Below, piece by piece: positions 25-62,631 of a stretch of 64,000 bases of DNA; positions within the stretch are counted from its first letter, which is position 1, and each line of letters begins with the position of its first letter. The translations under genes were made by a program, and so were the position numbers. Source of the DNA: an uncultured bacterium (lineage in GTDB: Bacteria > Babelota > Babeliae > Babelales > Vermiphilaceae); contig OY969561.1 of assembly GCA_963701085.1 (NCBI GenBank), positions 608,001 through 672,000 of the forward strand, in the 5' to 3' direction. The notes beneath the pieces were generated by a model. The model worked only from the letters and a program-made list of their open reading frames with translations. It did not search any database and was not told where the DNA came from.

Positions 25-57
25 GGCCTGCCATACGAAGCTTTACGCGAAGTATGG
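25..57 (-). repeat. Palindromic repeat family B fused to the tRNA-Ser CCA end
   Basis: Minus strand reads CCATAC-TTCGC-GTAAA-GCTTC-GTATGG-CAGGCC. The same architecture follows tRNA-Thr and tRNA-Leu. Confidence 0.8.
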
Positions 58-146
58 TGGAGAGAGAGGGATTCGAACCCTCGATGCCTCTTTCGAAACA
101 TACATGATTTCCAATCATGCTCCTTCAACCGCTCAGACACCTCTCC
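55..146 (-). tRNA. tRNA-Ser(GGA)
   Basis: GGAGAGG acceptor stem, CATGA-TT-GGA-AA-TCATG anticodon arm, long variable arm, GGTTCGAATCC T-loop, encoded CCA. Confidence 0.95.
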
Positions 147-159
147 TCAATGAGGAAAT

Positions 160-972
160 TTATTCCTGTGCATCAAGTTGTTGCAATGCTATTTCAACAT
201 CACTTGGAGCTTCTTCAACCACAACGCTTTGGACGCCTTTTTTAGTTACTTGAGCATCGCCTGCAGCTTTTACATTCTTAGCAGCTTCTTTACCACGAGT
301 AACAGCATCAGCAAGATATCCCAAAAGCAAGCTAATTGATTGAGGAGAATCATCATTTGCTGGAATAACAAAATCAACCAATGAAGGATCGGAATTAGTA
401 TCAACAATTCCAATTACCGGAATACCCATCAACACAGCTTCTTTAACCGCTGATTGCTCTTTGCTAACGTCAACAATAACAATTGCGCCAACTGGCAATG
501 CTAACTTTCTAATACCACCAACCGTTTTTTCAAGCTTGTCAGCAGTTTTTCTGTATAAGTTAAGCTCTTTTTTGGTATAAAAAGGATTTGATTCCGATTT
601 TACCAAAATATCTTCGTAATGAAGCAATCTTGTTAAAGATTTTTTAACTTGACTGAAATTAAGCAAAGTTCCGCCCAACCATCTGTGATTAACGTAAGGC
701 TGATTTAACTTAACCCCAATATCTTGAACAGTTTTTGATGCAGCTTTTTTAGTGCCTACCCACAAAACTGTTTTACCTTCAGCAGCTATCGACTCTAAGA
801 ATTTTTCTGATTTGTCCAACTGGAAAGCAGTTTTGGAAACATCAATCAAATGAACCTTATTTTTGTAGCCCCAAATATATTGCTCCATTTTAGGACACCA
901 ACGAGACTTTTGATGACCAAAATGAACGCCTGCTTTTACCAATTCTCCAAACAATTCTTTAAAATCTCTCAT
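160..972 (-). CDS. rpsB: 30S ribosomal protein S2
   Basis: AGVHFGH, VGTKK, RWLGGTL, GIVDTNSDP and IPANDD motifs. Confidence 0.98.
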   Translation of the reverse strand: MRDFKELFGELVKAGVHFGHQKSRWCPKMEQYIWGYKNKVHLIDVSKTAFQLDKSEKFLESIAAEGKTVLWVGTKKAASKTVQDIGVKLNQPYVNHRWLGGTLLNFSQVKKSLTRLLHYEDILVKSESNPFYTKKELNLYRKTADKLEKTVGGIRKLALPVGAIVIVDVSKEQSAVKEAVLMGIPVIGIVDTNSDPSLVDFVIPANDDSPQSISLLLGYLADAVTRGKEAAKNVKAAGDAQVTKKGVQSVVVEEAPSDVEIALQQLDAQE

Positions 973-1037
973 CCAAACATCCTTTATACTTTTATTTCAT
1001 TCATAGAAAGTGTAACAAAATAAGAGAAAAATGCAAT

Positions 1038-2468
1038 TTATACTGCATTCTTTCTATTAAAATCCCCTTCAGCCCCAATAACCTCATTATTAACAATCGC
1101 CTTCTCAAAGCGGCGACCTAACAAAAAGGCCACCCCAAACCACAAGCCGACTATCCCTGCGAAAAAGAAAGAATGAACCGGAAGCATGAATGATTCACCC
1201 ATTCTTGATGCAAAAATATTAAACATAGACCCTGCAGTTTTAGCAAACTTGCTCCCAAATGCATCAATCCATGATTTTGATTTAAACTTAATTTCTTTAA
1301 CCGTTGGTAAGTACAAGCTTTCTCGTACGGGAGAAAGGAATGCATAATTGAGTGCGGTAAACACAACAAAGGCATTTCGCAATGATTCTGGAGATGTTTC
1401 AAATACAAGGTAAAAGAGAATACCCCCCATAGAAAAAGGGATCAACATCAAACAAATACGGGTTCCAAGACGAGCTAACAACGCCTGCGTACCAACTAAT
1501 GAGATAATAAAGCCAACAAAATGCGCTTTAAATGCTATTTCAAACAATACCTTAGAAACATCAGAAATTGACCCTGCCCCAGCTTCTGCAACACCAAGAC
1601 GTAAATAGCCAAGCACCGTTGAAATTATTTCGTAAAAGAAGACCATACCAAAAATACCAAGCACATACGGATATTTTACAAACATTTCAAGCCCTGCAAA
1701 CATGCTTGGCTTAGCTACAACAGCAGTTTCACTTTTTTGCTTTTCAAGCTGATATGCCGCTTCATATCCATGTAATAAATGGCCAGGAACTGTTTTAATA
1801 AATAGTACTGCAACAACCGGAACTACTGCCAGAAAAAGCGAAGAAATTACTAAAATCAATTGGTGTGCCTCAACATGAGTTAAACATGGTTTGAGCAATT
1901 GAGCACTGAGTCCAAAAATATACCATGCCAAAGCCGCTGCAACCATGCCTCCAATTTTTGATCCTGCCACCATGTAGCCATAATTTCTTTTTGCTTCAGC
2001 AGGACTATTGACTGAATTGGCTAGTGCCCAAAAAACACTCACCACAAATGGTGAATAGCCTTCAACAAAGAAATAAAAAAACCAACCAAACAAACGGGAT
2101 GGATGCGCATCAGTATTGAGGATACCAATTGTTGGATGCCCTATATAATAGGCAAAAATAAGATTCGCCAACCCAAACACAACACTATAAAAAATGAGGA
2201 GCTGATAGCGACGAATTTTATCAACCAACCGCGAATAGAAAAAAATAGCGGGAACAAGCATGAGCATGGAAATAACTTTTACCCAAGGTATATATTCTTT
2301 TCCAACCGTTCCCAAAAAAATTGCGCTTTTAAGATCACGAGTTACGGTATATGCTCCAACAACAAGGAAATAGAGAAGCGACAAAAAGAAAAGTTTCATC
2401 CGCTCTTGTGGCTCAATCTCAAACAACCCACACACCATTTGTTTAACTCTAGATAACATTCTAACCAA
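1038..2468 (-). CDS. NTT/TLC family nucleotide transporter (ATP/ADP translocase-like)
   Basis: Multi-TM MFS-like protein with FWALAN..EAKRNY and LYLPT..IKFKSKSWIDAFGSKFAK, typical of the Npt/Tlc family. Confidence 0.88.
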   Translation of the reverse strand: MVRMLSRVKQMVCGLFEIEPQERMKLFFLSLLYFLVVGAYTVTRDLKSAIFLGTVGKEYIPWVKVISMLMLVPAIFFYSRLVDKIRRYQLLIFYSVVFGLANLIFAYYIGHPTIGILNTDAHPSRLFGWFFYFFVEGYSPFVVSVFWALANSVNSPAEAKRNYGYMVAGSKIGGMVAAALAWYIFGLSAQLLKPCLTHVEAHQLILVISSLFLAVVPVVAVLFIKTVPGHLLHGYEAAYQLEKQKSETAVVAKPSMFAGLEMFVKYPYVLGIFGMVFFYEIISTVLGYLRLGVAEAGAGSISDVSKVLFEIAFKAHFVGFIISLVGTQALLARLGTRICLMLIPFSMGGILFYLVFETSPESLRNAFVVFTALNYAFLSPVRESLYLPTVKEIKFKSKSWIDAFGSKFAKTAGSMFNIFASRMGESFMLPVHSFFFAGIVGLWFGVAFLLGRRFEKAIVNNEVIGAEGDFNRKNAV

Positions 2469-2500
2469 GACCTTTCTGCTGAATCTTACGGTGTTTTGCC

Positions 2501-2540
2501 AAAAAACGCCTTCTAAAAAATCAATTAGAAGGCGTTTTTT
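2501..2540. terminator. Intrinsic terminator between the two NTT genes
   Basis: AAAAAACGCCTTCTA...TAGAAGGCGTTTTTT inverted repeat with T-tails on both strands. Confidence 0.8.
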
Positions 2541-2568
2541 AATTACTTACTCAATAGTCAATAACATA

Positions 2569-3930
2569 TTAACATACAATACGTTTTTCTTTGATTGCTT
2601 TGTCATAGGTTTTAGCAACATAAATTGCAACTAAAAGCCATACACCAACAAGACCAAAAGAAATTATTGAACTGAACATCAAGAAACGAGCAACGCCATC
2701 GATTGCGCCATGATGCGCTACCAACGGTGCGCGGAATGTATTAATGTATGAGCCACTTCCTTTTGAGAATCGGCCGCCAAACATTTCAATCCATGCTTGT
2801 GCTTTATACTTAGTATCTTTTGATGTTGGAATATAAAGCTGTTTTAATGTTGGCTGATTCAACGCATAGTTAACTGCTTTTGAGAACACCATAATCCAGA
2901 AACCCATAATCAGTGATTGTGGATTAAATTTAATCAAAAGAACAGCGCATGCTGTTAACACAGGAAGCATTAATAATGATGCTCTCATACCCAAAACACG
3001 CTGAATGCTATTAATACCAAATAACACACACAATGTTGAAACAACACCGGTCATTGTTGCATACGATGCCAAATAAGCACCTACTTCAGCTTCATTAGTA
3101 AACGCTGTAGAAACACTCATTTTAAAGTGAAAATCAAGAACCGTTACGATAACTTCAAAAATGGTGATAATAAGGAACAAGCCGAGCAAGTAACCGCGCG
3201 TTACTAAAAGCTTTAATCCTTCAAAGAACCCTGGTTCGCTCTCAACTTCAGCTTCTTCACCTTCTGCACGGTATCCTTTAAGCTGTGATGCTGGCGTTAC
3301 GTGCATAAATCCCCAGAACATAAAACCAATCACAAACAAAAGACACGATAAAATACCAACTACAGGTGCGCTATTAGAAAAACCAAGTTTCTTAGCATTA
3401 AGCAACCATGGTCCGATCATGTTTCCAACTTGCCCAAACAATGCTACAAGAGGGAATCCTCTTTTTGCTGATTCAGGAGAAGTCATATCGGTAACAATTG
3501 CCCAGAAAAGAGCAACCATCAATGAACCAAAACTTTCAACCCAAATATACCACATCCATCCCAAAATACGGGTAGGACTTTTTACGGTATTTGCAAGACC
3601 AATTGAAGGATCAGAAAAACATAAAAACATAATGAAAGCGATTACGCCGTAGAGAGCTGTTAAAAAATAAAAAACTTTGTGACGCGGAAAAGTATCAACA
3701 AGTTTACTATAGAGAATTACAATAGGAAAAATAATCACAAGAGATAGCACTTTTGCCCATGGTTGCCATTCCATACCAATCATTGCATTAAAAATACTAT
3801 CCTTCATTGGACGTAATGCCCAATAAATACCAATAATCCCACAAAAGATAAGTGCAAGAATGCCAAATTTCTTCAGCTCTTCCTTGCTCTCAAAATTTCC
3901 CCAAAGCATTGTAGCTAGACGTTTTAACAT
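2569..3930 (-). CDS. NTT/TLC family nucleotide transporter (ATP/ADP translocase-like)
   Basis: LRPMKDSI, FWAIVTD..AKRGFP, KAVNYALNQPTLKQLYIP..KYKAQAWIE.FGGRFSK. Confidence 0.9.
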   Translation of the reverse strand: MLKRLATMLWGNFESKEELKKFGILALIFCGIIGIYWALRPMKDSIFNAMIGMEWQPWAKVLSLVIIFPIVILYSKLVDTFPRHKVFYFLTALYGVIAFIMFLCFSDPSIGLANTVKSPTRILGWMWYIWVESFGSLMVALFWAIVTDMTSPESAKRGFPLVALFGQVGNMIGPWLLNAKKLGFSNSAPVVGILSCLLFVIGFMFWGFMHVTPASQLKGYRAEGEEAEVESEPGFFEGLKLLVTRGYLLGLFLIITIFEVIVTVLDFHFKMSVSTAFTNEAEVGAYLASYATMTGVVSTLCVLFGINSIQRVLGMRASLLMLPVLTACAVLLIKFNPQSLIMGFWIMVFSKAVNYALNQPTLKQLYIPTSKDTKYKAQAWIEMFGGRFSKGSGSYINTFRAPLVAHHGAIDGVARFLMFSSIISFGLVGVWLLVAIYVAKTYDKAIKEKRIVC

Positions 3931-4088
3931 CGAGCAATCCTTCCGAATAAAAATAATGTTATTACTATAGAAACCTACTTTACCACCTAAATTTAGCAGA
4001 GGAATAATGATTTGTAAAAATTATATTATTTAATTATCAAAAAACAGCCTTTTTTGGAACTTAATATCACTTTTTGGCCATAATAGGC

Positions 4089-4160
4089 AAAAAAAAGGCC
4101 TACACATATAATGCAGGCCCTTCTCTACCCTAAACCCCTTCCGTAGAGGCCTGACAACAA
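4089..4160 (-). promoter_or_regulatory. Candidate attenuator leader or small RNA ending in an intrinsic terminator, upstream of the NTT genes
   Basis: GC-rich island: AGGCCUCUAC..GUAGAG stem followed by GGCCUGCA..UGUAGGCC-U8 terminator. The 5' AGGCC can alternatively pair with the terminator 5' arm. Confidence 0.55.
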
Positions 4161-4188
4161 CATTTACAATTAGAAACATCTTTTTTCA

Positions 4189-4216
4189 TTGACAAAAAAC
4201 AGCAACAATTTACTCT
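4189..4216 (+). promoter_or_regulatory. Putative sigma70 promoter of lon
   Basis: TTGACA-16 nt-TACTCT about 95 nt upstream of the lon ATG. Confidence 0.45.
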
Positions 4217-4308
4217 TAGAAGTAAGTAGTATTACTGCAAACATAAACAAGAATTTGAATATTTTGATAATCTAACCACTACAATTATCATCCACAGGGG
4301 GAAGCGCT

Positions 4309-6741
4309 ATGAAAACAGAAAAAACCAAAAAATTAAAAAAACAGGTACTTGAGCTTAATGAGGGCTCTCTTCCTCTCTTACCCCTCAAAAACGTAGCAAT
4401 GCTTCCAAAAAGCATTATTCCGGTTATTGTTGGCCGCGATATATCAATCAAAGCGGTAGAACATGCCTTAAAAACCAACCGCATGCTCTTTATTTCAGCA
4501 CAAAAAAATGCTACAACCGAGACTCCAAATAAAGACGATGTGTTCATCTATGGCACCCGCTCTACCATATTACAAGTCATGCGCATGCCAAACGGGCCAT
4601 TAAAAATACTTGCTGAAGGTCTCTGCAGAGCAAAAGCAACCCATTTTGAAGAACATGAAGACGGCTTTATCAATGTTACGTATGAAGACCTTCCAACGCC
4701 AAACATTGATCTTTCTATTGAACTTGAAGCAATGTGGCGTGAAACAGTTCATCTTTACGGCAATTATTCAGCACTTCATGATAAAGTTCCATCTGATCTG
4801 ATCTCAAAAGCAAAAACCATTCAAGATATTGATTACATGGTTGATACCATCGCTGTACACATTGATAATTTATCGCTTGAAGACAGACAAGCCATTTTGG
4901 AGCTACCTGATCTTAAATTACGCATGCTTAAATTATGTTATTTCTTAGAAAAGGAAATCGACATTCTCCAAACAGAGCAACGCATTCGTGGACAAGTTCA
5001 AACACAAGTTGATAAAAATCAACGCGAGTACTATCTCCACGAACAGATGAAGGCTATTCAAAAAGAACTTGGACGTGAAGACCAATCAGACGAAATTACC
5101 ACTATCAGACAAAAAATTAAAAATGCTGGGCTTTCTAAAGAAGCAAAGCAAAAGGTTGAAAGTGAATTAAAACGGCTTGAACAAATGCCTCCACTTTCAT
5201 CAGAGGCCGTTGTCAGCAGAAATTATATTGATTGGATTATATCATTGCCATGGCAAAACGTGAGCAAAGATACCATCAATATTGCGCAAGCGGACGATAT
5301 TTTAGACAAAAATCATGCAGGACTTAAAAAAGCAAAAGACCGCATTATTGAGTTCATTGCTGCAAAAAAATTCTCTAAAAATTTACATCGCTCACCCGTT
5401 ATTTGCCTTGTTGGCCCTCCTGGTGTTGGTAAAACATCATTGGCACGCTCAATTGCAGAAAGCATGGGGCGTGAATTTATTCGTATATCATTGGGTGGCG
5501 TACGGGATGAAGCTGAAATTCGTGGCCATAGACGCACTTATATTGGCGCATTGCCAGGAAAAATTATCCAAGCAATGAAAAAGGCAAATGTACTCAATCC
5601 AGTTATTTTGCTTGATGAGATTGATAAAATGTCACGCGATATGCACGGTGATCCTGCAGCAGCGTTACTCGAAGTGCTTGATCCAGAACAAAACAAAAAC
5701 TTTATCGATCATTTTCTTGATACAGGATATGATTTATCACAAGTTATGTTCATTGCAACCGCAAACATGATGGATCAAATTCCTTATCCTCTGTATGATC
5801 GCCTTGAAATTGTTAACCTTTCTGGATATTCAGATCATGAAAAGCTAGCAATTGCTAATCAATTCCTTATTCCAAAGAACTTAAAAGAATACAATCTCAC
5901 TAAAAAACAGTTCATCATTTCCGATGATATAATTTTATCCATCATTGATGAATACACAAAAGAAGCGGGTGTACGTCAATTGGAACGTATTATTGCAAAA
6001 TTAATGCGTAAAACCATCCAGCTCATTCTTAAGAATGACAAAATTAAATCGCACACAATCACCAAACCGCTTGTTTTAGAATGGCTTGGTAACTCTGCCC
6101 ATAAAAAAACAAGTATGAGTCAAAAAGCAGAACGCATTGGTCTCGCAACAGGTCTTGCATGGACTGAAGTTGGCGGTGATGTTTTAGAAATTGAAACATC
6201 AGTACTCACCGGCAAAGGTGGGCTTACGCTCACGGGACAACTTGGTGAGGTAATGCAAGAATCAGCACAAGCTGCAATGAGTTATATTAGATCACGCGCA
6301 AAAGATTTAGGGTTAAAACCAAATTTTTACTCAGCAAATGATATTCATTTGCATATCCCAGAAGGCGCAACACCAAAGGATGGCCCTTCTGCCGGCATCA
6401 CTATTTGCACAGCATTAGTTTCTGCATTGACCAACAATCCAACAAAACCAAAGCTTGCTATGACCGGTGAAATCACCCTGCAAGGAAGAATTCTTTCTAT
6501 TGGTGGCTTAAAAGAGAAACTTCTTGCGGCAAAACAACATGGATGCACTACCGTTATTGTTCCGCAAGAAAATGAGGACGATATCGAAGATGTCAAAAAA
6601 GAGATGTCTCTTGATGATCTCACCCTCAAATTTGTGAGCAATATGGATGAAGTGCTTAAAATTGCATTTATCAAGAATCCTTTTGATAAAAAAATACGGC
6701 CTATGAAAAAACGTCCAACTAAAAAAGTAAAAACAACATAA
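4309..6741 (+). CDS. lon: Lon ATP-dependent protease
   Basis: N-domain, Walker A GPPGVGKT, LLDEIDK, catalytic PKDGPSAG and IGGLKEK. Confidence 0.98.
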   Translation: MKTEKTKKLKKQVLELNEGSLPLLPLKNVAMLPKSIIPVIVGRDISIKAVEHALKTNRMLFISAQKNATTETPNKDDVFIYGTRSTILQVMRMPNGPLKILAEGLCRAKATHFEEHEDGFINVTYEDLPTPNIDLSIELEAMWRETVHLYGNYSALHDKVPSDLISKAKTIQDIDYMVDTIAVHIDNLSLEDRQAILELPDLKLRMLKLCYFLEKEIDILQTEQRIRGQVQTQVDKNQREYYLHEQMKAIQKELGREDQSDEITTIRQKIKNAGLSKEAKQKVESELKRLEQMPPLSSEAVVSRNYIDWIISLPWQNVSKDTINIAQADDILDKNHAGLKKAKDRIIEFIAAKKFSKNLHRSPVICLVGPPGVGKTSLARSIAESMGREFIRISLGGVRDEAEIRGHRRTYIGALPGKIIQAMKKANVLNPVILLDEIDKMSRDMHGDPAAALLEVLDPEQNKNFIDHFLDTGYDLSQVMFIATANMMDQIPYPLYDRLEIVNLSGYSDHEKLAIANQFLIPKNLKEYNLTKKQFIISDDIILSIIDEYTKEAGVRQLERIIAKLMRKTIQLILKNDKIKSHTITKPLVLEWLGNSAHKKTSMSQKAERIGLATGLAWTEVGGDVLEIETSVLTGKGGLTLTGQLGEVMQESAQAAMSYIRSRAKDLGLKPNFYSANDIHLHIPEGATPKDGPSAGITICTALVSALTNNPTKPKLAMTGEITLQGRILSIGGLKEKLLAAKQHGCTTVIVPQENEDDIEDVKKEMSLDDLTLKFVSNMDEVLKIAFIKNPFDKKIRPMKKRPTKKVKTT

Positions 6742-6767
6742 ACATTCATTATTAAGTGGAGTTCACT

Positions 6768-6977
6768 ATGAATAACAAATTGGCTACATTATTTTGCATT
6801 ACCGTACTTGCTCTTGCTCCTTCATGCAGCAAGCGCCAACAACCCTACTCTGCCAAGGCTACGAAGGGCACGAAATCTGTTGCTAAAGAAAACATTAACA
6901 CCATGATTGAATTAGATAATGCAGTTTTTGAAACTGAAGAAGCAACTGATGCAGAAAAATCGATTGTTAAATTTTAA
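6768..6977 (+). CDS. Small putative lipoprotein
   Basis: GGAG RBS, hydrophobic signal ending LAPSC, followed by a terminator. Contains a family B repeat in frame. Confidence 0.65.
   Translation: MNNKLATLFCITVLALAPSCSKRQQPYSAKATKGTKSVAKENINTMIELDNAVFETEEATDAEKSIVKF
6843..6872 (+). repeat. Family B repeat inside CDS (encodes PYSAKATKGT)
   Basis: CCCTACTCTGCCAAGGCTACGAAGGGCACG matches the copies at 19367 and 51791. Confidence 0.7.
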
Positions 6978-6999
6978 TTCAAAAATTTTTGAGTACTCT

Positions 7000-7025
7000 A
7001 AGCCGCCCACAAGGCGGCTTTTTTT
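7000..7025 (+). terminator. Intrinsic terminator
   Basis: AAGCCGCC-CACAA-GGCGGCTT-TTTTT. Confidence 0.85.
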
Positions 7026-7118
7026 ATGGCAAAACAGCAATTCTTGCGAATAATACTTATCATCATGTAAAATATCTATAGTAACTATTATTTAATTATT
7101 TTATTTATATATTTTCCC

Positions 7119-7256
7119 GCGCTCGCCCTGAACTTGTTGAAGGGTTTTCTTCGAGCGCTCGAGGATATCCTTTATTCCCCAATTTCCTCTTCGTTTCAAT
7201 TGGGGTCCCCGTCGAAAGGTACTGAAGATGGGGTTAAACAAGCTCAGGACGAGCGC
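7119..7256. repeat. Family A palindrome interrupted by a family C element
   Basis: GCGCTCGCCCTGAAC..GGATATCCTT[about 64 nt CCCC..GGGGTCCCC..GGGG]AACAAGCTCAGGACGAGCGC. Uninterrupted A copies lie at 30387 and 52906. Confidence 0.9.
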
Positions 7257-7312
7257 GGAAGAAGAATTAAAGCAAGTAATTAGTGCTATACCAAAAGGGG
7301 AAGGGATAGAAA

Positions 7313-7441
7313 ATGAAAAGAAATATTATGATCATATTCTGTTTTTTACTACTCGGATCGCTACCAAGTTGCAGAAAAAAAAGCCGTTCACAAAAACAAT
7401 TTGAAAAAAATACTAAAGCTCAGATGGCAAACAATCATTAA
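7313..7441 (+). CDS. 42-aa putative lipoprotein (below ORF-track cutoff)
   Basis: MKRNIMIIFCFLLLGSLPSCRKK... with a purine-rich RBS and lipobox-like LPSC. Confidence 0.5.
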   Translation: MKRNIMIIFCFLLLGSLPSCRKKSRSQKQFEKNTKAQMANNH

Positions 7442-8105: not shown

Positions 8106-8159
8106 TTAAACCCCATCTTCAATTTTTTTCAATGGGGACCCCAATGAGGACCCCAATTG
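8106..8159. repeat. Family C repeat spanning the recJ stop and the cmk start region
   Basis: TTAAACCCCATCTTCA..ATGGGGACCCCAAT matches the copies at 62473 and (reverse complement) 7197-7237. Confidence 0.75.
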
Positions 8160-52058: not shown

Positions 52059-52068
52059 ACACCAATTT

Positions 52069-52106
52069 TTAACCCCATTCTTCATTTCATTCCGCATGGG
52101 GACCCC
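52069..52106. repeat. Family C half-element in the tRNA-Cys/tRNA-Leu spacer
   Basis: TTAACCCCAT..ATGGGGACCCC. Confidence 0.65.
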
Positions 52107-52125
52107 ACTAAAGAGGATAGAACTT

Positions 52126-52199
<74 letters not shown>

Positions 52200-52905: not shown

Positions 52906-52979
52906 GCGCTCGCCCTGAACCTGTTGAAGGGTTTCTTGGAGCGCTCAAAGATATCCTTCAACAAGTTCAGGACGAGCGC
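52906..52979. repeat. Family A 74-nt palindrome, intergenic between convergent genes
   Basis: GCGCTCGCCCTGAACCTGTTGAAGG..CCTTCAACAAGTTCAGGACGAGCGC. Confidence 0.93.
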
Positions 52980-53029
52980 AAGAAAAAATATAAATCGGGC
53001 AAGGCTAATGTTTTCTGCTATATAGTTAT

Positions 53030-54004: not shown

Positions 54005-54037
54005 AATTATTCCTTTATATAATATTTTTTTCTTCCG

Positions 54038-54088
54038 GTCATCCTGAGTGTCCTACGAAGCCTTGGCGTAGTAGGATGTATCGAAGGA
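54038..54088. repeat. Family D half-element with B insert flanked by TG/TG
   Basis: GTCATCCTGAG-TG[TCCTACGAAGCCTTGGCGTAGTAGGA]TG-TATCGAAGG. Confidence 0.8.
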
Positions 54089-55101
54089 TTATGTGGTGTG
54101 GGGTAAACAATGCATTGGGTTCACCCGCTTGCCCCACTCGTATACTTCAAAATGCAAATGCGAGCCATCTTTACCTTTTTTTCTAATAAATCCTGTTTCT
54201 CCCACCGTACCGACAATTGCACCTTGTTTAATTTTTTGTCCCGCACAAACACGTATTGCATGCAAATGAGCATAGCGTGTTTTTATTTTATCAGTATGCT
54301 GAACAACCACTGTATTGCCATACCCTGTCTGAAAGCAAGCTTCAGTCACCGTACCACCTCGCGCTACCTTAACAATGGTACCTTTTACCGCTGCCATATC
54401 AATGCCGTGATGAAATCCCCACGTACCATCAATACGTTTGCGCGGACCAAACAATGAACTCAACCAAAATTTATCTGCATCAATTGGCCACATAAATCCA
54501 TAATCTTTAATAGGACGATGCATTGCCGTAATTTTTGTTTCTTTCTTACCACGCTCCTGCGTAGATTTAACAAAAGAAGAAGCAACTGGTTTACGTACGT
54601 TCTGTTTTTTTTGTTGTGGGATCACAACTGGTTTCTCGGTATAATCAGACCAACGATCAACATCAATTGCCGTCATCAGTGTATTAAGATCCTGCGATTC
54701 TATATAATCTAATGTTGATTGCTTAAGATAATCAGGATGCCTATTAATCACCACAAAAGAATCATCGACATACTCATCATCATCATCAGGATCATCACTT
54801 GCCTCTGCTGCCATTATCTCTTCTACCCCAATTTCTACTCCTCCATCGCCCAATCTACAATGACATTCGTTCCAATTGGGGTGCCCATCAAAATTCTGCG
54901 ATGCGCTCCATCATCACCATTAACTTTCTTATTCAGCAGATCAACATACAAAGCATACTGCTGCTTAAGCGCCAGCATTTCTTGTGCTTGAGTACAAAAA
55001 AATCGGTATTCAGCAAAAAGAAGTACCATGAGAATCATCATGATACTTACACAAAAACCAAACAGTACTGAATACACAACAGGAAAACGTTTACTCACCA
55101 T
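54089..55101 (-). CDS. M23 family metallopeptidase with N-terminal TM (frame break near 54845)
   Basis: FHHGID, GYGNTV, YAHL and HLHFEV in 54089-54853. The TM-containing N-part 54835-55101 is in another frame. Confidence 0.9.
54847..54906. repeat. Degenerate family C element inside the M23 gene
   Basis: CCCAAT..TTCGTTCCAATTGGGGTGCCCATCAAAA..GATGCG resembles TTCGTTTCAATTGGGGTCCCCGTCGAAA at 7190. Confidence 0.65.
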
Positions 55102-55127: not shown

Positions 55128-55874
55128 TTATATAATTTGAACAACATCTGCTTCAACCCAGCCAATCATACCAGCATATCGAACTTTATACCACCCTTCT
55201 CTTGCTTCTTTTACTGCTACACCATGAGCATAAACAAGCGGACAAAGCGGACAAAGCCCCTTATCTGGACCAACAAAAAGCTGTGCTTCTTTTTTTACTA
55301 TAAGCCCATTCTGAGAGCCCTGCTTGCTGTAATGCACCATTATCACAGAACCAAAAATTGCCATAAAAAGAGATAAGCAACCCACCGTGGTTTTTTGTAT
55401 TTTTGTCTGCTGTTTTTTACGTACTAAAAAAATAAACATGTACCAACACAACAGAAAAAAAAGCTGTAAAAAAAAGAGCGTTGCATAGGGCAAAGCATTG
55501 TGTATAAAGGTTACTATTGCATACTTAAAAGAGTTATTATCCTGCTTGCCAACTATATCAGCAACACGCTTTTTGTTATGGGAAATTACTTTGTACTCCT
55601 GCGGCGTTGCACCAACTTCAGCACGCGACCAATACACAAGCGCTTGAGCATAATCACCTTTATGAAATGCGCAATTACCCATATTATATACAACAGCACG
55701 TCCTTTTTTACTCATCGCATCATATGAACGGAATGCACCATCATAATCTTTTTGTTCATACTGCTTGTTGCCACGCAAAAAAAGTTCTTCATCACTGCCG
55801 GCAAAATTTGACGCCGCAGTCAATGCACACATAAAAAACAGTACTATATACTTTTTTCTAAACGATCCAACCAT
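55128..55874 (-). CDS. BatE-like TPR plus TM plus SH3 protein
   Basis: GNKQYEQKDY..YNMGN TPR, two TMs, C-terminal EGWYKV..GWV. Confidence 0.82.
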   Translation of the reverse strand: MVGSFRKKYIVLFFMCALTAASNFAGSDEELFLRGNKQYEQKDYDGAFRSYDAMSKKGRAVVYNMGNCAFHKGDYAQALVYWSRAEVGATPQEYKVISHNKKRVADIVGKQDNNSFKYAIVTFIHNALPYATLFFLQLFFLLCWYMFIFLVRKKQQTKIQKTTVGCLSLFMAIFGSVIMVHYSKQGSQNGLIVKKEAQLFVGPDKGLCPLCPLVYAHGVAVKEAREGWYKVRYAGMIGWVEADVVQII

Positions 55875-57535
55875 TGCTTTGCCATCCTACATAATTCATC
55901 ACTATTTTTATTATCTGACTGCGCATAGGCAGCATGTGTAATCTGCTCAAAAAAATCATGCCATTCAGTTGACATTTCTTGCGACACTTTACCTAAATTC
56001 TGAAATAGCTGCATAAAAATCGCGTATAAATTTTTATCATTACCAGATTTTATAGCAAGCTCTATTTGTTTGCGCGCCTGTTTAAAGGCACGTCGACGTG
56101 TAAATCGCGAACTGCTTGCCAACCTCATAAACTTATCTGATACCAATGGATATCCCACATAAAGGCACGGCATTAAAAACAGAAATTGGAATAACCACCA
56201 TGGCAATGCCTGACGTTCTGGAAGTGGGTACCACTGCCCAACCGTGTTAATATCAGCAATTTTTTCTTCTGCTGCAACAGTTGTTGATGTGGGTTCAACA
56301 AATTCAAGAGGGGCAACTATATTTTTTTTTGCGCTCATAACCCCTGGCATAATTGATACTGCAAGCGGTGATGTACGCAATGTTACATACGCATTTTTTT
56401 CCGTATCAAAATAAGTAAACAGTTGCTCTGGAATTTCGCAATGACCGGATTCCATTCCCTGCACAATAAATTCGAATCTTTTTTTTGGAAATTCATCGCT
56501 ATGTTTTGGCTGAATTATTACGTTATTCGAATCATAATATTTTAAAGATTTAGGCATATTCAATGTTGGAACTGCTATAGCCTGCAAATTACCAACACCT
56601 TCAACTTCAATAACCATTACCATTCCTTCCCCTTCCTTTGCCATGCCAGGCTTTATTTCAGCAGAAAAACGCTCAAAAACACCAACAGCATGAACCGGAC
56701 GATCATAATGAGGAATCGGGGCCACTTTAATAGTCACCGCATTTGAGTACACACGTTTACGTTCACCGCGACTATTTAATAACGCAAAAAAACCACCAAA
56801 AAGGTGATTGTCTTTTGTAGGAATCTCATAATCAGCACTATGAGCAGGAATAAGAAACTCCCCTGGCTTTGTTGGATACATATCCCATCGCCATTGAGCA
56901 TAATAATATTCTGAACCATCAATTTCCGCAGTGCCTTTTTCTAATTCGCTCATCTCTTTTTTATCAAAGGCTGCTAATTCTGGCATGCTTATAGTAAGTG
57001 CTGTTGCTGATGGATCTTGATAATAAAAACGGATCATACAGCCTATTTTTTGCCCAACAACAACAGATTCAGAGTCAACCATTACCCGTAAAAATGCTTT
57101 TGCTTCTGTTGCCTGACTCTGCTTATTACCATGCGTTGCAACAACAATATCCTTCACAACATCAATCCGAACTTCATTAGAAATCATTTCTTGCTGCTGA
57201 TGATGCACTACTGCTGGACCAATAACATATGATCCAATCACATCAATACGCACCTGATATGAAAAGCGGGCCGTCGCTCTTCCATTAACACTGCTCATAT
57301 ATGAACCAGATTGTCGCGCAGCAAACCTATCTAACCCTTTAATTGTTGGCATTTGCACTGATCCATACACATCATCAATACTAACTTCAAGCGTAAATGG
57401 TTGCCCTACAACAACCTGGTTGCTGGTACCATTTTCAGTTGCTATTTTCATTGAAATACGAGCATCTAAACAAATAACTGCAAAACTTAAAAAGATTATA
57501 AAAATTTTACCAACAATTTTGCCCATTTTTTCCAC
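55844..57535 (-). CDS. BatD family protein
   Basis: VGQPFTL..SSVNG..GSYVIGPA, AVG.F, EGVGNL, C-terminal TM; operon position. Confidence 0.85.
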   Translation of the reverse strand: MEKMGKIVGKIFIIFLSFAVICLDARISMKIATENGTSNQVVVGQPFTLEVSIDDVYGSVQMPTIKGLDRFAARQSGSYMSSVNGRATARFSYQVRIDVIGSYVIGPAVVHHQQQEMISNEVRIDVVKDIVVATHGNKQSQATEAKAFLRVMVDSESVVVGQKIGCMIRFYYQDPSATALTISMPELAAFDKKEMSELEKGTAEIDGSEYYYAQWRWDMYPTKPGEFLIPAHSADYEIPTKDNHLFGGFFALLNSRGERKRVYSNAVTIKVAPIPHYDRPVHAVGVFERFSAEIKPGMAKEGEGMVMVIEVEGVGNLQAIAVPTLNMPKSLKYYDSNNVIIQPKHSDEFPKKRFEFIVQGMESGHCEIPEQLFTYFDTEKNAYVTLRTSPLAVSIMPGVMSAKKNIVAPLEFVEPTSTTVAAEEKIADINTVGQWYPLPERQALPWWLFQFLFLMPCLYVGYPLVSDKFMRLASSSRFTRRRAFKQARKQIELAIKSGNDKNLYAIFMQLFQNLGKVSQEMSTEWHDFFEQITHAAYAQSDNKNSDELCRMAKQWLDRLEKSI

Positions 57536-58538
57536 CTTGTTGATGCTGACGAACTTTTGCTTCCATTAACTGTTTATTAATTGCCTTGTCTTTCTGTTCC
57601 TGATTATTCAAAACCTGCAACAACCATGGATCATTAAGAGCAATTTCACTTTTCTTATCATCACCATCTGCTTGCCCATCTTGACCAGCTGCAGATGATG
57701 CATTACTCTTATTATCAGTTATATTCTGTTTCTCAGGAGTTTTATTGTGTTCATTACCTTGTTGATTTTTGGGCTTGCTTTGCTGATCCTTCGCTTTTTT
57801 ATCAAGCTCTTGATTACCATTCCGCTTCTTATTATCCTCGGAATTTTTTTGCTGCTGCTCTTTATTCCCATGCTCTTTTCTTTGTGCATCTTTATTACCC
57901 TGCTCAGCACTATCTCCCTGCTCACCTTGGGACTTCTTATCTGAGCCCTCATTCTGTTTATCTTTTTGATCGCCTGATTGCTCATCTTTTTGATCACCAT
58001 TCTGATTTTGCTGTTGTTGATCATCACCATTCTGCTTGTCTTTGTCTTGTTTATCATCTTTCTTTTGATCATCTTTCTGATCGTTTTCTTTTTGCTGTTG
58101 TTGTTCTTGCTCTAACATCTGTGCAACACGATCACGATTATGACGCGCATGCTCATTATCCGGTTCTAGAGCAAGTGCCTTATCATACTGCTCAAGAGCG
58201 CATGGTAAATTCTTATCATCAACACATGCGTTGCCCGCATTAAAATGTGCACGGAACTGTAAATTTTTATCATGATGTGCCAATTCCGCTGCACGAACAA
58301 AATAAGCAGCTGCCTGACTAAAACTACCAAGAGTATATGCCGCAACTCCTGCATCATACACAACATCAGCATTATCCGGCTTATTGGTCACAATGCTGTT
58401 GAGCTTTGCATGCGCATCTTGCCAATTACCTTTTTGTGCTGCATATATGGCAGAATCATAAGAGAATGAGTAGAGTGAGCTTGATACGCTCATCACAAAA
58501 AAACAAAAAAAATAATGTGTTAATCTCATAATAACCAC
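57507..58538 (-). CDS. BatC-like TPR protein with Q/D/K-rich tail
   Basis: AHFNAGNA..YDKALALEPDNEHARHN and a low-complexity linker. Confidence 0.82.
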   Translation of the reverse strand: MVIMRLTHYFFCFFVMSVSSSLYSFSYDSAIYAAQKGNWQDAHAKLNSIVTNKPDNADVVYDAGVAAYTLGSFSQAAAYFVRAAELAHHDKNLQFRAHFNAGNACVDDKNLPCALEQYDKALALEPDNEHARHNRDRVAQMLEQEQQQQKENDQKDDQKKDDKQDKDKQNGDDQQQQNQNGDQKDEQSGDQKDKQNEGSDKKSQGEQGDSAEQGNKDAQRKEHGNKEQQQKNSEDNKKRNGNQELDKKAKDQQSKPKNQQGNEHNKTPEKQNITDNKSNASSAAGQDGQADGDDKKSEIALNDPWLLQVLNNQEQKDKAINKQLMEAKVRQHQQGGKNGQNCW

Positions 58539-59539
58539 TCAAGGGCAAAACAGATAAAACTTACCAATAAAAAATAATGATATTGATCTTCATACCGAGC
58601 ATGTTTACGCTCAGCAAGGAACTCTTTATCAAATGCGTTTACCAAGCGCATAAACAATCCAATATCCTCATCATTATACGTTGCACGAATGTAACTACCA
58701 CCGGCATCTTGCGAAAGTGTGCGCAAGATTCCCTCATTTAATCGTGAAATAACAACGCCACCTTGCGTATCTTTTTGATGCCCAATAAGTTTACCATGAG
58801 GATCAAACAAAGGAACTGGTGCTCCTTCTGGCGTACCAATACCAATGGTAAAAATAGAAAGACCTGCATCAGTAGCCTCTTGTTTACTATCATGCAAGTT
58901 ATGCGAAAAATCTTCACCATCGGTGAATAACACAAGCAATTTGCTTTTACGATCTGGTAGTGCTGCAAACGATGTTAACGCCTGTTGAACAGCTTGAGCA
59001 AGTGCAGTGGTTCCCGAAGAAATAAGCTCAGCATCAACAGCGTCAAGATACAAATAAAACGCCGAATAATCAGATGTTAAAGGACATTGCACAAACGCAG
59101 AACCAGAAAAAAGAATGAGTCCAATGCGCTCACAAGAAAGTTTTTTTACTAATTTTTTAATTTTTTCTTTTGCAAATGTTAAGCGATTAGGCTCACAATC
59201 AGTTGCTAGCATACTGCGAGAAATATCAAGCGCAATATATAAATCACGCCCTTCCTGCATAATAGTTTCTTCTGATTTATCCCACTGCGGTCTCAATAAT
59301 GAGATGCATAAAAACAAACATCCAATAACCATCAAAAAAGATTTTAATACCTGCTTTGTTGGTGAAACATTACGCAAAAACTCACGATGACTGCCAACCA
59401 ATGCACTCTGTGCCGCACGCTGCTTTTTATAGCGCACCATTAAAAGCAATAACACAATCCCCACAAAAAACATGTACCATATATTGCCTGGTGAGCCCCA
59501 GTGGATACCGCTTATATTTGTTATCATAATGAAAACCAT
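58526..59539 (-). CDS. BatB-like vWA domain protein
   Basis: RPQW, LDISRSM MIDAS, PNRL, PLTSD, TDGED. Confidence 0.9.
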   Translation of the reverse strand: MVFIMITNISGIHWGSPGNIWYMFFVGIVLLLLMVRYKKQRAAQSALVGSHREFLRNVSPTKQVLKSFLMVIGCLFLCISLLRPQWDKSEETIMQEGRDLYIALDISRSMLATDCEPNRLTFAKEKIKKLVKKLSCERIGLILFSGSAFVQCPLTSDYSAFYLYLDAVDAELISSGTTALAQAVQQALTSFAALPDRKSKLLVLFTDGEDFSHNLHDSKQEATDAGLSIFTIGIGTPEGAPVPLFDPHGKLIGHQKDTQGGVVISRLNEGILRTLSQDAGGSYIRATYNDEDIGLFMRLVNAFDKEFLAERKHARYEDQYHYFLLVSFICFALEWLL

Positions 59540-60519
59540 ACGTATGTTGAAAGTAATAATTCAGACAAAACAACCGCCATAATCATGCCGACAATAGGAA
59601 TGAGTAGATCATAATAAAGACTAAACATCGGAACTTCATGATCTGTTTTTTCTAATGCATCGATGGTGTCATAAATACGCCGCATATCTGCTGCACTGCG
59701 TGCAAGAAAATAGTGACCACCTGTTTGATTTGCAATTTGCGTCAACAGCTCTTTATTAACTTTTGGCCGTATCATCATGCCATATAATGGATGTCTAAAA
59801 ATCTGTTCTTGCTCACTACCAATGCCAACAGTATATATTTTAATACCTAATTTTTTAGCTACATCAATTCCAACCGATGGATCCATATCCCCTTCACTTG
59901 GTTCACCATCAGTCAACACAATCATCACCTTGGTTTTTGCTTGAGAATGCTTAAGACGATTTGCAGCTGTGACAATACCAGTGACAAGCATAGTTCCATC
60001 AGAGTCTATAACACCAAGCTGTAACTCTTCAACCACTTTTTGGAGCAACTCTTTATCAAATGTAATAGGACAGCGCGATACGGTATCCTTACCAAACAAA
60101 ACAAGACCAAGAGCATCATTAGTACGTTTTTCAATAAAATGTATTGCTTCTGCCTTGGCAACTTCAAACCGTGAGCGGTCATCATCATCATAATCTCTAA
60201 ATTGCATACTGCCAGACACATCAAGCACTACAACAATATCAATACCTTGGACAGGAATCTGAGAACGCGAATCAACAATTTGAGGCTTTGCAATGATAAT
60301 CGCAAGAAGAATGAGCGTCAGTAAACGCAAAAAATAAAAAACTTTTTTATGAATATGAGAAAAGTTAGAACTGTTTTTCTTAAGCGCAAGCCCTAAAGAA
60401 TAACGATACACAACCGTTTTGCGCAAGAATTTACGTGCAAACATAATGACAATAATCACTGCAATTAAAACAACACTATACAATGGATATGTGCAACGCA
60501 TAAAAAAATGATTGATCAC
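59524..60519 (-). CDS. BatA-like vWA domain protein
   Basis: AKPQ, LDVSGSM MIDAS, LTDGE, KIYTVGIG, TGGHYF. Confidence 0.9.
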   Translation of the reverse strand: MINHFFMRCTYPLYSVVLIAVIIVIMFARKFLRKTVVYRYSLGLALKKNSSNFSHIHKKVFYFLRLLTLILLAIIIAKPQIVDSRSQIPVQGIDIVVVLDVSGSMQFRDYDDDDRSRFEVAKAEAIHFIEKRTNDALGLVLFGKDTVSRCPITFDKELLQKVVEELQLGVIDSDGTMLVTGIVTAANRLKHSQAKTKVMIVLTDGEPSEGDMDPSVGIDVAKKLGIKIYTVGIGSEQEQIFRHPLYGMMIRPKVNKELLTQIANQTGGHYFLARSAADMRRIYDTIDALEKTDHEVPMFSLYYDLLIPIVGMIMAVVLSELLLSTYVWFSL

Positions 60520-61247
60520 TTATTCTGCTCCATCTGTTCAACAAACCATTGTTGCACTCGAATTTTAAATGATTCATCCGTATCATGTTGTTCATACATA
60601 AATGGCTTACCCACAATAACGGTGATTGGATACAACTGCACCCAAAACGTTTCTGGCGGATATGCCTTATCAATACCAATAATACAAACAGGCACCACTG
60701 GACGTCCTGTTTTTTTTGCAATTACCGCAAATCCACCAAAGAAATCATGAATTTTACCATCCGTATACCGTGCACCTTCTGGAAATATCACAAGATTGCG
60801 ATGATGATTATTAACAATATTTAATATTTTGCGCAACGATAACATTGATTCTCGCGGGGAAGAAACATCAACCAGAACAGATATAAGTGGCACAATCCAT
60901 CTGATAAAAAAAGAATCCATTAATTCCGATTTTGCCAGCCAGACATGAGGAACTCCTTTTGAAAGCACCCCAATAAGAGGAATATCCAAAGTTGATTGAT
61001 GATTGGCTGCAAAAATTACCGCCTTATCCTTGGGAATGTTTTCCATCCCTTTATAGGTAATGGGCAACATTGATCCTTTTAATATTGCAACATAAAACCA
61101 ATGAATAGGATAAAAAAGTATTGGATACCTATAACGATAACGCTCCGGGATACAAATGAAAATAATAATTGGAATAAGAAAAATAATCGTAACCACTATT
61201 AACAAAAATCGTGAGAAAAGATTGCGTACTACCATTCCAATATTCAT
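60516..61247 (-). CDS. plsC: 1-acyl-sn-glycerol-3-phosphate acyltransferase
   Basis: NHQSTLD, FPEGAR, PVVPV. Confidence 0.9.
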   Translation of the reverse strand: MNIGMVVRNLFSRFLLIVVTIIFLIPIIIFICIPERYRYRYPILFYPIHWFYVAILKGSMLPITYKGMENIPKDKAVIFAANHQSTLDIPLIGVLSKGVPHVWLAKSELMDSFFIRWIVPLISVLVDVSSPRESMLSLRKILNIVNNHHRNLVIFPEGARYTDGKIHDFFGGFAVIAKKTGRPVVPVCIIGIDKAYPPETFWVQLYPITVIVGKPFMYEQHDTDESFKIRVQQWFVEQMEQNK

Positions 61248-61256
61248 AAAAATCCC

Positions 61257-61928
61257 TTATTGCGACTGTTTAAAATAAAGATCAAACTGATCATGAAGTT
61301 TTTTAATATAAATATTGGCATACGTACATACACCAATCGGTATCAAAAATGCTCCTATTATAGCTTGCGTTAATGGTGTAATAACAAACATATAATTAAC
61401 AATAAATACAAGAACGCTACAACAAAAATTCATAACAAATATGAGAGGAAAATTATAGAGCATCATTTTCAACCCATTCCACATAGAAAGAAGAAAATTT
61501 TTAAATCCTCCTTCTGAATCGGCAAAGAAGAGAATGAAAAACACATACCATGGCGAATATGAAGATACCAAAAAGAGCGGCACCAACAACAACATCAAAA
61601 GAAGCCAATATAAAATGATTTTTTTAAATTGGGTACGAAAATAAGTACAATCTTTTTGCAAAATAGAAGGACGAGTAATAAAACAAGTTCCTAAAAATAA
61701 TATTCCATATAAAAAATAAACAATGCATAACAATACAATGTATTGAATTGAACCGTTAGGCATAATAAACAAACATAACAGTGGCAGCGCTAACAACAAC
61801 CACCAAAAATACTTAAAATATAATGTGTATGCTTCTAGAATTGATTTGATTGTTACCATCACAAAAAGCTGTAAATTCTTTGGCTTGAGTAATGTCAATG
61901 AATCTACCCATGATTGAACTAATGTCAT
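61257..61928 (-). CDS. Multi-pass membrane hypothetical protein
   Basis: About 5-6 hydrophobic segments, RBS, operonic spacing. Confidence 0.75.
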   Translation of the reverse strand: MTLVQSWVDSLTLLKPKNLQLFVMVTIKSILEAYTLYFKYFWWLLLALPLLCLFIMPNGSIQYIVLLCIVYFLYGILFLGTCFITRPSILQKDCTYFRTQFKKIILYWLLLMLLLVPLFLVSSYSPWYVFFILFFADSEGGFKNFLLSMWNGLKMMLYNFPLIFVMNFCCSVLVFIVNYMFVITPLTQAIIGAFLIPIGVCTYANIYIKKLHDQFDLYFKQSQ

Positions 61929-62011
61929 AATTCACCCTTAATTTATTTTTTTATGTATCTACCGTATAAAAAATTAACTCTTTCGACAAGTTTGGAAAGT
62001 AAATTAAAGAT

Positions 62012-62383
62012 TTAAAATAACGGCTCAGCTTCTATATTATGCTCAAGCGCATATAAACAATGCTCAATATCTTCCGGCATAATATCGCCTTCTTCTTCCA
62101 GCTCTTCTAATATCTGAATAACACCGGCAACACAATCAGCATCTTCATCCTTGCAGGTATATAAATCTGAAAACCATACAAAGTGAACCCAATCAAAAAG
62201 ATCCACCTGCGATATAATTTCTTGTTTAAAGCGCTTGAGAAGATGAATCAGATGCTTGCGTTCAATAATAACAGGATTTTCAAGCAATTCAGTTTCATCA
62301 TCGTAGCGCAACTGCGGCATATCGTCTTTATTCATTTTCAAGTCTCTGACTTTTTCTAACATTTCACGATAATTAATAGACAT
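62012..62383 (-). CDS. Acidic hypothetical protein
   Basis: AAGGA RBS, 123-aa ORF. Confidence 0.7.
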   Translation of the reverse strand: MSINYREMLEKVRDLKMNKDDMPQLRYDDETELLENPVIIERKHLIHLLKRFKQEIISQVDLFDWVHFVWFSDLYTCKDEDADCVAGVIQILEELEEEGDIMPEDIEHCLYALEHNIEAEPLF

Positions 62384-62465
62384 TGTCCTTTACCCCCATT
62401 AACTTAAAGATACTTCTTAGTATCTATTTTACACAAAGTCCAATTATTAACAATGCATGCCCTAC

Positions 62466-62631
62466 GCGCTCGTTTAACCCCATCTTCAGTTCCTTTCGAC
62501 GGGGACCCCGATTGGAACGAAGTGGAAATTGGGGAATAAAGGATATCCCCGAGCGCTGGAAAGAACCTCAGAAATGAAAATTCTTTCTTATACGGGGTCC
62601 CCGGATTGGAGCTTTAGCGAAATCTGGGGTA
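62466..62631. repeat. Partial A::C composite plus a separate C half-element
   Basis: 62473-62566 is a near reverse complement of 7146-7238; GGGGTCCCCGGATT..AATCTGGGG at 62594. Confidence 0.88.

Follow-up and report, generated by a model that had tools for sequence, protein, structure and literature searches.

What are the GC-rich palindromes that recur between the genes of an uncultured Vermiphilaceae bacterium (Babelota), and how did some of them come to lie inside others? We addressed this question in 64,000 nucleotides of assembly GCA_963701085.1 (contig OY969561.1, positions 608,001 to 672,000; hereafter the window), where an initial annotation made from the sequence alone had recognised four related repeat types, A to D. 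We compared these 64 kb of the source genome with ~165 kb from five related genomes, ~230 kb in all. Our favored reading, to which we assign a probability of about 0.55, is that the repeats are a lineage-specific population of non-autonomous, hairpin-forming elements in Babeliales (Dependentiae/TM6-type), similar to repetitive extragenic palindromic sequences (REPs), to REP doublets that form hairpins (REPINs) and to Rickettsia palindromic elements (RPEs), and presumably processed by an HUH-type enzyme. That the elements are mobile or recently mobile is very probable; that the mobilizing enzyme is of the HUH/Y1 type is a tentative proposal.

Element A defines the family most sharply. All five loci initially assigned to it (7119, 19248, 30387, 52906, and 62466) matched the A core pattern with 0 mismatches, against 0.00 such matches expected in shuffled sequence, and the A terminus motif was found 9 times in the window against 0.62 expected. 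A profile built from 21 intact copies matched the window at the same five loci only. Each of the 21 strictly intact copies is exactly 74 nt long and consists of two 37-nt arms, complementary at 29–36 of 37 positions, that is, an inverted doublet of the REPIN type. The outer ends are formed by a 7-base motif, GCGCTCG, at the start and its complement at the end; the center carries both motifs again, overlapping, so that each arm is able to close on itself. The first description of A as a 74-nt double hairpin was therefore right about its length, but the element is a single long palindrome, each half of which can also fold on its own. Over 6–7 bases, the left flank of the core is rich in pyrimidines and the right flank in purines, and no T-run follows the hairpin on either strand; this flank polarity is wrong for, and rules out, an ordinary intrinsic-terminator role. 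Further out from the core, we observed no general conservation or pairing among the 21 copies, and a longer mobile unit around A was rejected after the flanks of a copy paired no better with each other than with those of other copies (8.5 versus 7.9, p = 0.15, 21 copies). A subset of copies has a longer resemblance: those at 30387 and 52906 share ~45 nt more on one side (30461–30504 and 52980–53023), and the same AT-rich stretch lies beside A in the flanks of three relatives' loci (L050, L059, and L030), though not family-wide.

We then followed family A beyond the window by scanning 185,579 species genomes with a 24-base pattern taken from the A center. The scan returned 68 loci (numbered with the prefix L), of which 45 are genuine family A, all within five related metagenome-assembled genomes: 15 in OY968764.1, 11 analyzed in DATAXH01 (labelled Candidatus Babeliales), 7 each in OY969806.1 and CAWAHQ010000001.1, and 5 in CAZWTF01. 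The copies are thus not confined to the window. The remaining 23 were discarded as chance matches in unrelated taxa, where the pattern alone lies inside coding sequence with no palindrome around it. No scan locus is identical to the window; the closest flanks share 82–84% DNA identity with it (ctpA in L002, gyrB in L053), and the CtpA proteins of the window and L002 are 85% identical. With the A profile, we recovered ~22 more full or half copies in the flanks of the relatives' loci. A copies share 91% identity across genomes and 93% within one (permutation p = 0.01); the scan pattern dictates 20 of the 74 positions, so both figures are somewhat inflated. The host genes gyrB and ctpA, at 82–84%, are less conserved in DNA than the A copies. 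As a side observation, two loci of OY969806.1 (L037 at ~30 kb and L055 at ~1,456 kb) match almost perfectly across several kb that take in an A copy; this is either a large chromosomal duplication or an assembly repeat.

A census of repeated 11-mers proved too noisy and was replaced by a BLAST search of the window against itself, which gave significant pairs for A, for a composite of A and C, for B, and for D. Against Rfam 15, only four tRNAs in the window reached the gathering score and none of the elements did; the sole sub-threshold match on an element was a microRNA-precursor model on the long A hairpin (E 0.088). The A+C composite had no match in plasmid and phage collections. Overall, the coordinates first given for A, B, and D all passed statistical tests, as did four of the six given for C, and the proposal of a real family of related GC-rich palindromic repeats stands.

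The clamp formed by the GCGCTCG ends also occurs as a single arm. Read by eye, 4 of the 44 central copies in the relatives are single arms, and many of the ~22 additional A-profile matches span only one half of the model. Element D belongs here. Both of its copies (29521 and 54038) were confirmed, but D, first described as an A-like half, turned out to be a family of its own and not an A with a chance insertion: a single clamp arm with a variable inner hairpin, present in 19 copies by motif search of the window and the relatives' loci. The inner hairpin is GC-rich and B-like, or an AT-rich version of the same shape, or short and simple, and in one locus (L031) another arm is nested inside. D often occurs in inverted pairs, five of them in our sample (L002, L012, L023, L037, and window 29475–29582); in the window pair, an inverted partial left end (29475–29500) lies beside the D at 29520–29582.

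The second unit is B, a REP-like hairpin of 30–36 nt. In 15 aligned copies, a 6-bp outer stem is followed by a near-invariant 3 × 3 internal loop, a 2-bp inner stem, an apical loop of 4–10 nt, and, at the foot, a four-base tail. Compensatory changes occur at all six outer-stem pairs, as in a short imperfect palindrome of the REP kind, and stem positions are paired in 88% of cases, compared with 77% in shuffles and 22–47% in controls with slid partners. The 3 × 3 mismatch in mid-stem corresponds to the bulge of group-2 REPs. A covariance model trained on 15 copies (10 from the window and 5 from the loci) found, in the window, nine uninterrupted copies among the ten positions already listed, together with an inner copy at 51925–51955, and nothing else below E = 0.3; the tenth listed position, 51911, is an interrupted outer hairpin. 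The window thus holds 11–12 copies in 64 kb, all intergenic, and the model gave 20 matches in the 165 kb of relatives, 14 of them outside the training set.

The placement of B at tRNA genes is an observation in its own right. Directly 3′ of three of the four window tRNA genes (Ser, Thr, and Leu) lies a B copy whose first stem bases are the tRNA's own CCA, and the fourth gene (Cys) is followed by a partial C. This arrangement could reflect 3′-end processing, termination, or an insertion preference; the comparison rests on the window alone, as the 43 relatives' loci contain no tRNA genes.

Element C consists of two hairpins built around a palindromic core of 9 bases. Of six copies first listed, those at 7173 and 62473 are strong (7172–7241, E 4e-18, and 62472–62540, E 8e-16) and those at 8106 and 52069 are partial, but those at 54847 and 62594 are weak. 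By eye, C lies within an A context or the decayed remains of an A at 13 of the 18 places inspected. C does not look like an independent element; it is almost always cargo of A. The partial copy at 8107–8160 encodes the C-terminal ~14 residues of RecJ together with the stop codon, and also occupies the 13 nt that precede the cmk start codon. Apart from this overlap with the last recJ codons and from an A within tilS, all elements of the window are intergenic.

We next turned to the nesting itself. Three of the five A loci in the window carry cargo, as do 10 of the 44 central copies of the relatives by eye (L002, L012, L014, L031, L040, L044, L045, L052, L060, and L064). Four of the 12 window B copies fall in A, C, or D loci that make up 1.4% of the sequence (binomial P = 1.6e-5). 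These insertions use few positions. Arm site 1, between the halves of the arm's inner repeat, is occupied in the window (19292), twice each in L060 and L031, and in L016, L010, and L052, by at least four B stem variants. Arm site 2, adjoining the terminus, is occupied in the window (19367), L012, L064, L065, and D copies, by at least three variants. The A at 19248 has B in both arms, as first described: its left arm holds an A-arm-like hairpin (19261–19287) and a B (19292–19321, minus), and its right arm another B (19367–19396, plus). B also enters B, in three cases at the 3′ internal loop (window 51925, L052, and L010, in three different outer hairpins) and in two cases at the apical loop (L064 and L060). 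Excision of 32 nt (51924–51955) from 51912–51973, with a boundary ambiguous by 1 nt, gave back a canonical outer B, and the outer hairpins of L052 and L010 were likewise restored by inspection. The reported B within D was also borne out, the B at 54047–54076 being the inner hairpin of the D at 54036–54091.

Other composites evidently spread as wholes. The segment 7150–7243 aligns with 62561–62468 at 92.6% identity over 94 nt (E 1e-33), and the A+C junction is identical in the window and at least eight loci of three genomes, which upholds the claim that C entered A at one junction and that the composite was then copied. The same truncated arm with C, with the same junction, lies beside topA in the window (62466) and beside mutL in L045, at non-orthologous sites. 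The DATAXH genome has four copies of one composite that joins A, B, and an additional hairpin (twice in L031, and in L016 and L010). Two loci are symmetric: L060 has identical mirrored B copies, one per arm, and L040 has diverged C copies in both arms.

Part of the nesting is therefore inherited from a few ancestral composites and is not repeated new insertion. Could all of it be? The strongest rival of our reading holds that there is no insertion preference and that a handful of old composites arose once and were then amplified, like mosaic BIMEs (bacterial interspersed mosaic elements). The near-constant residence of C in A with one junction, the fourfold A+B+hairpin composite, and the truncated arm shared by non-orthologous sites in two genomes are all as expected in that case. 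However, the different B variants at the same positions, at least four at arm site 1 and at least three at arm site 2, together with a B-in-B site used in three different outer hairpins in three contexts, require several independent insertion events, and the identical mirrored B copies of L060 also speak against single origins. We consider this rival unlikely. The proposed preference for insertion into other palindromes holds to the extent that B is enriched at a few fixed positions, but not for the portion of nesting that spread within ancestral composites (A+C and A+B+hairpin).

If the repeats move, orthologous sites should differ in occupancy, and this is what we observed when we looked for empty sites. 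L002 carries an A+C in the region of divergent promoters that lies upstream of ctpA, a site that is empty in the window; L030 carries an A beside an HAD-hydrolase gene, where the window is again empty, with clearly orthologous sequence on both sides. In a well-aligned spacer shared by L065 and L003, an A is common to both and an extra arm with B is present in L065 only. The gyrB–tilS spacer holds a full A in L053 and a D in the window. Two other candidate empty sites were set aside: downstream of ctpA, the neighboring gene differs between the two genomes and the site is not comparable, and at a B-like match inside the L002 ctpA the window differs by only four residues in a variable linker. The description of a non-autonomous mobile system fits dispersed non-coding repeats whose occupancy differs and whose composites recur, but movement itself is not shown.

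Coding sequence was entered as well. The window tilS contains an A in frame, with no stop, and encodes 46–49 extra residues relative to the TilS of L053 (net 138 nt), 25 of them from A; an in-frame insertion absent from the ortholog is of the RPE kind. In the relatives' tandem Ddl–Ddl genes (L066, 230–2707, and L038, 256–2568), each module has a peptide derived from A between its N and C domains, and the two genomes differ in what is inserted (full A, half A, or half A plus D). Either the insertion came first and duplication of the gene followed, or this loop is a permissive hot spot. Three side observations concern tilS. To the left of its A, ~51 nt (17 codons, 30337–30386) are absent from L053 and match no recognized element, and the extra sequence nearest A loosely mirrors host sequence to the right of A. 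The gene (29604–30700) spans three frames, with ~20 codons from the ATG at 29604, a body at 29606–30634, and a last segment of ~30 codons; both frame shifts lie at homopolymer runs and reflect either assembly error or a decaying essential gene.

The same data bear on a second rival, in which the repeats are structural motifs selected by the host (protein-binding sites, hairpins at mRNA or tRNA 3′ ends, or nucleoid organizers) and spread by recombination or gene conversion. That A is 91% identical between genomes, compared with 82–84% for the DNA of neighboring genes, would suit it, as would the intergenic position of nearly all elements, the pairing of B with the CCA end after three of four window tRNA genes, and the compensatory changes that keep the B stems; host roles are also described for E. 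coli REPs and BIMEs in the portions of PMC2817692 and PMC3479197 that treat them. Against this stand the in-frame copies inside tilS and the relatives' tandem ddl, the differing occupancy of orthologous sites, the precise insertions within other copies, and a flank polarity that is wrong for intrinsic terminators. We regard it as distinctly unlikely; a host role and mobility are compatible.

Which enzyme might move the repeats? None of the window's 62 open reading frames (ORFs) of at least 100 aa encodes a transposase, as the initial annotation had stated. The ORFs flanking the relatives' loci include two IS200/IS605 TnpA genes (L014 and L057), ISAs1 and IS982 genes, and XerC- and XerD-like genes. 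Both Y1 TnpA genes lie within 2 kb of A copies: that of L057 (3467–4024), with an upstream hairpin, directly follows a D copy, and that of L014 (27–452), 40% identical to it, lies ~1.5 kb from an A+C copy. No REP-associated tyrosine transposase (RAYT) was among the 150 of 173 flank ORFs scanned. In L021, half an A lies right before the start codon of the XerC-like gene (2002–2949), and in L039 a full A lies right after the stop codon of the XerD-like gene (2056–2985). We judged the proximity a coincidence, as these genes are housekeeping paralogs found at 2 of 43 loci.

Genes for DDE transposases also occur, 0.1–0.5 kb from A copies (IS982 family in L067 and ISAs1 family in L025). The last and weakest rival, that the repeats are classical MITEs (transposable elements of the miniature inverted-repeat kind), internally deleted insertion sequences with the clamp ends as terminal inverted repeats for a DDE transposase acting on double-stranded DNA, could draw on these two loci, on A ends that are perfectly inverted by construction, and on the spread of composites with different cargo and the same ends, but is very improbable given that none of the 21 intact A copies has an abutting direct repeat of ≥2 nt as a target-site duplication, that the flanks are inverted in composition and not direct repeats, that single arms and 30-nt B hairpins without such inverted ends are dispersed too, and that A lies beside the IS982 and ISAs1 genes, not around them.

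Taken together, the lack of target-site duplications, the hairpin form of the units, and insertions placed precisely where bases are unpaired point away from DDE transposition and toward processing of folded single strands. In our favored reading, the population would be built from two units. The first would be the clamp hairpin, closed by GCGCTCG and its complement and flanked by tracts that are rich in pyrimidines on one side and in purines on the other; two such hairpins head to head would make A, and one arm alone, holding another hairpin as cargo, would make D and the C-carrying arm. The second would be B. B units would insert precisely into other hairpins, duplicating no target sequence and using a small set of fixed, for the most part unpaired positions, and the resulting composites would be copied whole, since copying would act on the outer clamp. 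Folded single strands would be processed by a structure-specific HUH/Y1 enzyme, RAYT-like or an IS200/IS605-type TnpA, that may be encoded elsewhere in the genome.

A bolder version, which we think rather unlikely, is a self-targeting hairpin system in which the folded hairpin is both substrate and landing site of a structure-specific single-strand enzyme. The landing sites would be the bulge, the loop, and the two fixed arm positions; palindromes would then enlarge from within, and the whole stack would travel on its outer clamp to further sites, essential genes among them. In this phylum of reduced genomes, the enzyme would be something other than a classical RAYT: either a TnpA of the IS200 type that works in trans or an enzyme not yet described. 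The mirrored B copies of L060 and the double C of L040 would then be double hits on symmetric targets or products of arm-to-arm copying.

Several observations weigh against the favored reading of REP-like repeats with HUH-type processing. No RAYT was found among the window's 62 ORFs of at least 100 aa together with the 150 of 173 flank ORFs of the relatives that were scanned. With 148 and 141 bits against the IS200 model, the two Y1 genes clear its cutoff of 55, whereas their 29–30 bits against the RAYT model fall short of its cutoff of 80. The hairpins flanking these two IS copies are simple perfect stems with no match to the B model. The B tail is conserved but reads CACG, CAGG, or CAAG on the modelled strand, neither GTAG nor CGTC; CTAC/GTAG happens to occur within some B stems. 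In a window with ~38% G+C and a negative GC skew throughout, and in the relatives, two strand predictions of a replication-coupled mechanism like that of IS608 did not hold: B showed no strand bias relative to local skew (17 G-rich, 14 C-rich; non-nested copies, 7 and 7), nor did A, whose better-pairing strand was the G-rich one in 9 copies and the C-rich one in 7, with 5 undecided. These strand tests involve small numbers, and they use local skew merely as a stand-in for the direction of replication. A four-base motif found before nested B copies is missing beside solitary ones, so a simple target rule fails. At three of the empty sites, the indels are ~120–160 nt, longer than 74 nt, and the excess is unexplained. 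The high conservation of A between genomes could mean a host function, and the sequence base is small: 64 kb of the source genome and ~165 kb of relatives.

How do these repeats compare with known systems? In the passages of PMC3333891 and PMC8266576 on their structure and processing, group-2 REPs are imperfect palindromes of 30–40 nt whose foot bears a conserved tetranucleotide and whose stem must contain a bulge, and E. coli REPs are cut as single strands by TnpA-REP in vitro. By those accounts, B is REP-like in size, as a GC-rich imperfect palindrome, and in its four-base foot motif and mid-stem mismatch; in the sequence examined, it is also mostly extragenic and dispersed, occurs singly and in clusters, and lacks target duplications. 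It differs in its tag, in the absence of a RAYT or REPtron from the ~230 kb examined, in its host, a reduced-genome intracellular bacterium of another phylum, and in its nesting at fixed positions, which is absent from the REP descriptions in those passages (PMC3333891 and PMC8266576). REPINs, in the part of Bertels and Rainey (PMC3337134) that defines them, are inverted REP doublets forming a long hairpin. A likewise is an inverted hairpin doublet folding as one long hairpin, single arms occur, D is often found in inverted pairs, resemblance among copies is slightly greater within than between genomes, and composites with intact outer ends recur at non-orthologous sites, as for the REPIN replicating unit. 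Unlike REPINs, A has no spacer between its arms, which are fused and have the central bases in common; it has a constant length of 74 nt, its arms carry hairpin cargo, and no single-copy RAYT is known for it.

RPEs are palindromic repeats of an obligate intracellular bacterium that lie in frame inside protein-coding genes, and to our knowledge no transposase is known for them. The in-frame A copies in the window tilS and in both halves of the tandem ddl (L066 and L038) recall this behavior; the repeats described here are mostly intergenic, shorter, and nested, and no relationship in sequence is expected. Coxiella burnetii offers a further parallel: as far as the relevant part of PMC5896051 describes it, QMITE2, with a GTAG REP, is targeted by IS1111, so that in another intracellular bacterium a mobile element prefers the palindrome of another. 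There, by the same account, the inserter is an autonomous insertion sequence of the IS110 family and QMITE2 has direct repeats of 7–11 nt, whereas the inserters here are 30-nt hairpins with no direct repeats. With IS200/IS605 elements, the repeats share hairpin dependence, the lack of target duplication, and a proximity to Y1 TnpA genes in two related genomes; they differ in having no coding part, in IS-flanking hairpins unlike B, and in the missing strand bias. A literature search found no description of such repeats for Chlamydiae, Dependentiae, TM6, or Babeliales (subscription papers and supplements were not covered), and the Chromulinavorax genome paper contains none of the repeat terms. 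The population is clearly REP/REPIN/RPE-like, yet distinct in sequence, in host phylum, in its fused 74-nt doublet, in a clamp that carries cargo, and in position-specific nesting.

Table 1. Repeat elements of the window, in window coordinates
Element	Coordinates	Strand	Remarks
B	27..57	-	First three bases are the CCA end of tRNA-Ser
B, solitary	6843..6872	+	~100 nt downstream of lon
A with C cargo	7119..7256	+	C (7172-7241) in right arm; between convergent lon and cmk
Partial C	8107..8160	-	E 8e-4 over 8107-8151
A, cargo in both arms	19248..19413	+	Between ctpA and DUF2608 gene
B, long-loop variant	25765..25800	-	Overlaps CCA end of tRNA-Thr
B, solitary	25897..25926	-	Between dksA-like gene and tRNA-Thr
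D	29475..29582	+	Arm with AT-decayed B-like hairpin (29520-29582); gyrB-tilS spacer
A, intact, 74 nt	30387..30460	+	Within tilS reading frame
B, solitary	51790..51819	+	Found by covariance model
B, solitary, long-loop variant	51878..51911	+	Found by covariance model
B, outer, interrupted	51912..51973	-	Overlaps CCA end of tRNA-Leu; inner B 51924-51955
Partial C	52068..52129	-	E 0.017; between tRNA-Leu and tRNA-Cys
A, intact, 74 nt	52906..52979	+	Between small ORF and lepB 3′ end
D	54036..54091	+	Arm with GC-rich B inside (54047-54076, minus); between lepB and M23 peptidase gene
C-like, weak partial	54864..54894	+	E 0.07; upstream of M23 peptidase ORF
Single clamp arm with C	62466..62562	+	C at 62472-62540 (minus); inner arm sequence replaced, second arm absent
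C-like hairpin	62594..62631	+	9-base core alone; missed by C seed search

The genes of the window include two nucleotide (TLC-type) transporters, lon, recJ, lysS, gyrB, tilS, dnaJ, a suf cluster, pilB, a batA–D cluster, and topA. The transporters had at first suggested a member of the Chlamydiae, an assignment abandoned once the genome scan turned up relatives in Babeliales, where we place the window. Three tandem paralogous genes of ~250 aa at 10086–12509 (84–95% DNA identity, period ~820 nt) have no family match. The pilB/gspE-type ATPase (49029–50775) consists of two overlapping ORFs, 49029–50282 and 50203–50775, which suggests a frameshift, and a WD40-repeat gene (34052–35828) is also in pieces.

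Dependentiae/Babeliales are uncultured, obligately intracellular bacteria with small genomes. Our analysis indicates that such genomes can sustain a thriving population of REP/REPIN-like DNA, which is able to insert in frame into essential genes, like RPEs in Rickettsia, and to stack palindromes in layers at defined positions. In practical terms, the repeats can serve as markers, and they can break assemblies and mislead gene calling through read-through ORFs across copies. How hairpins of this kind move is still an open question even for E. coli REPs, and the fixed insertion sites, together with the clean restoration of the host hairpin, provide a defined pair of substrate and target for studying hairpin movement.

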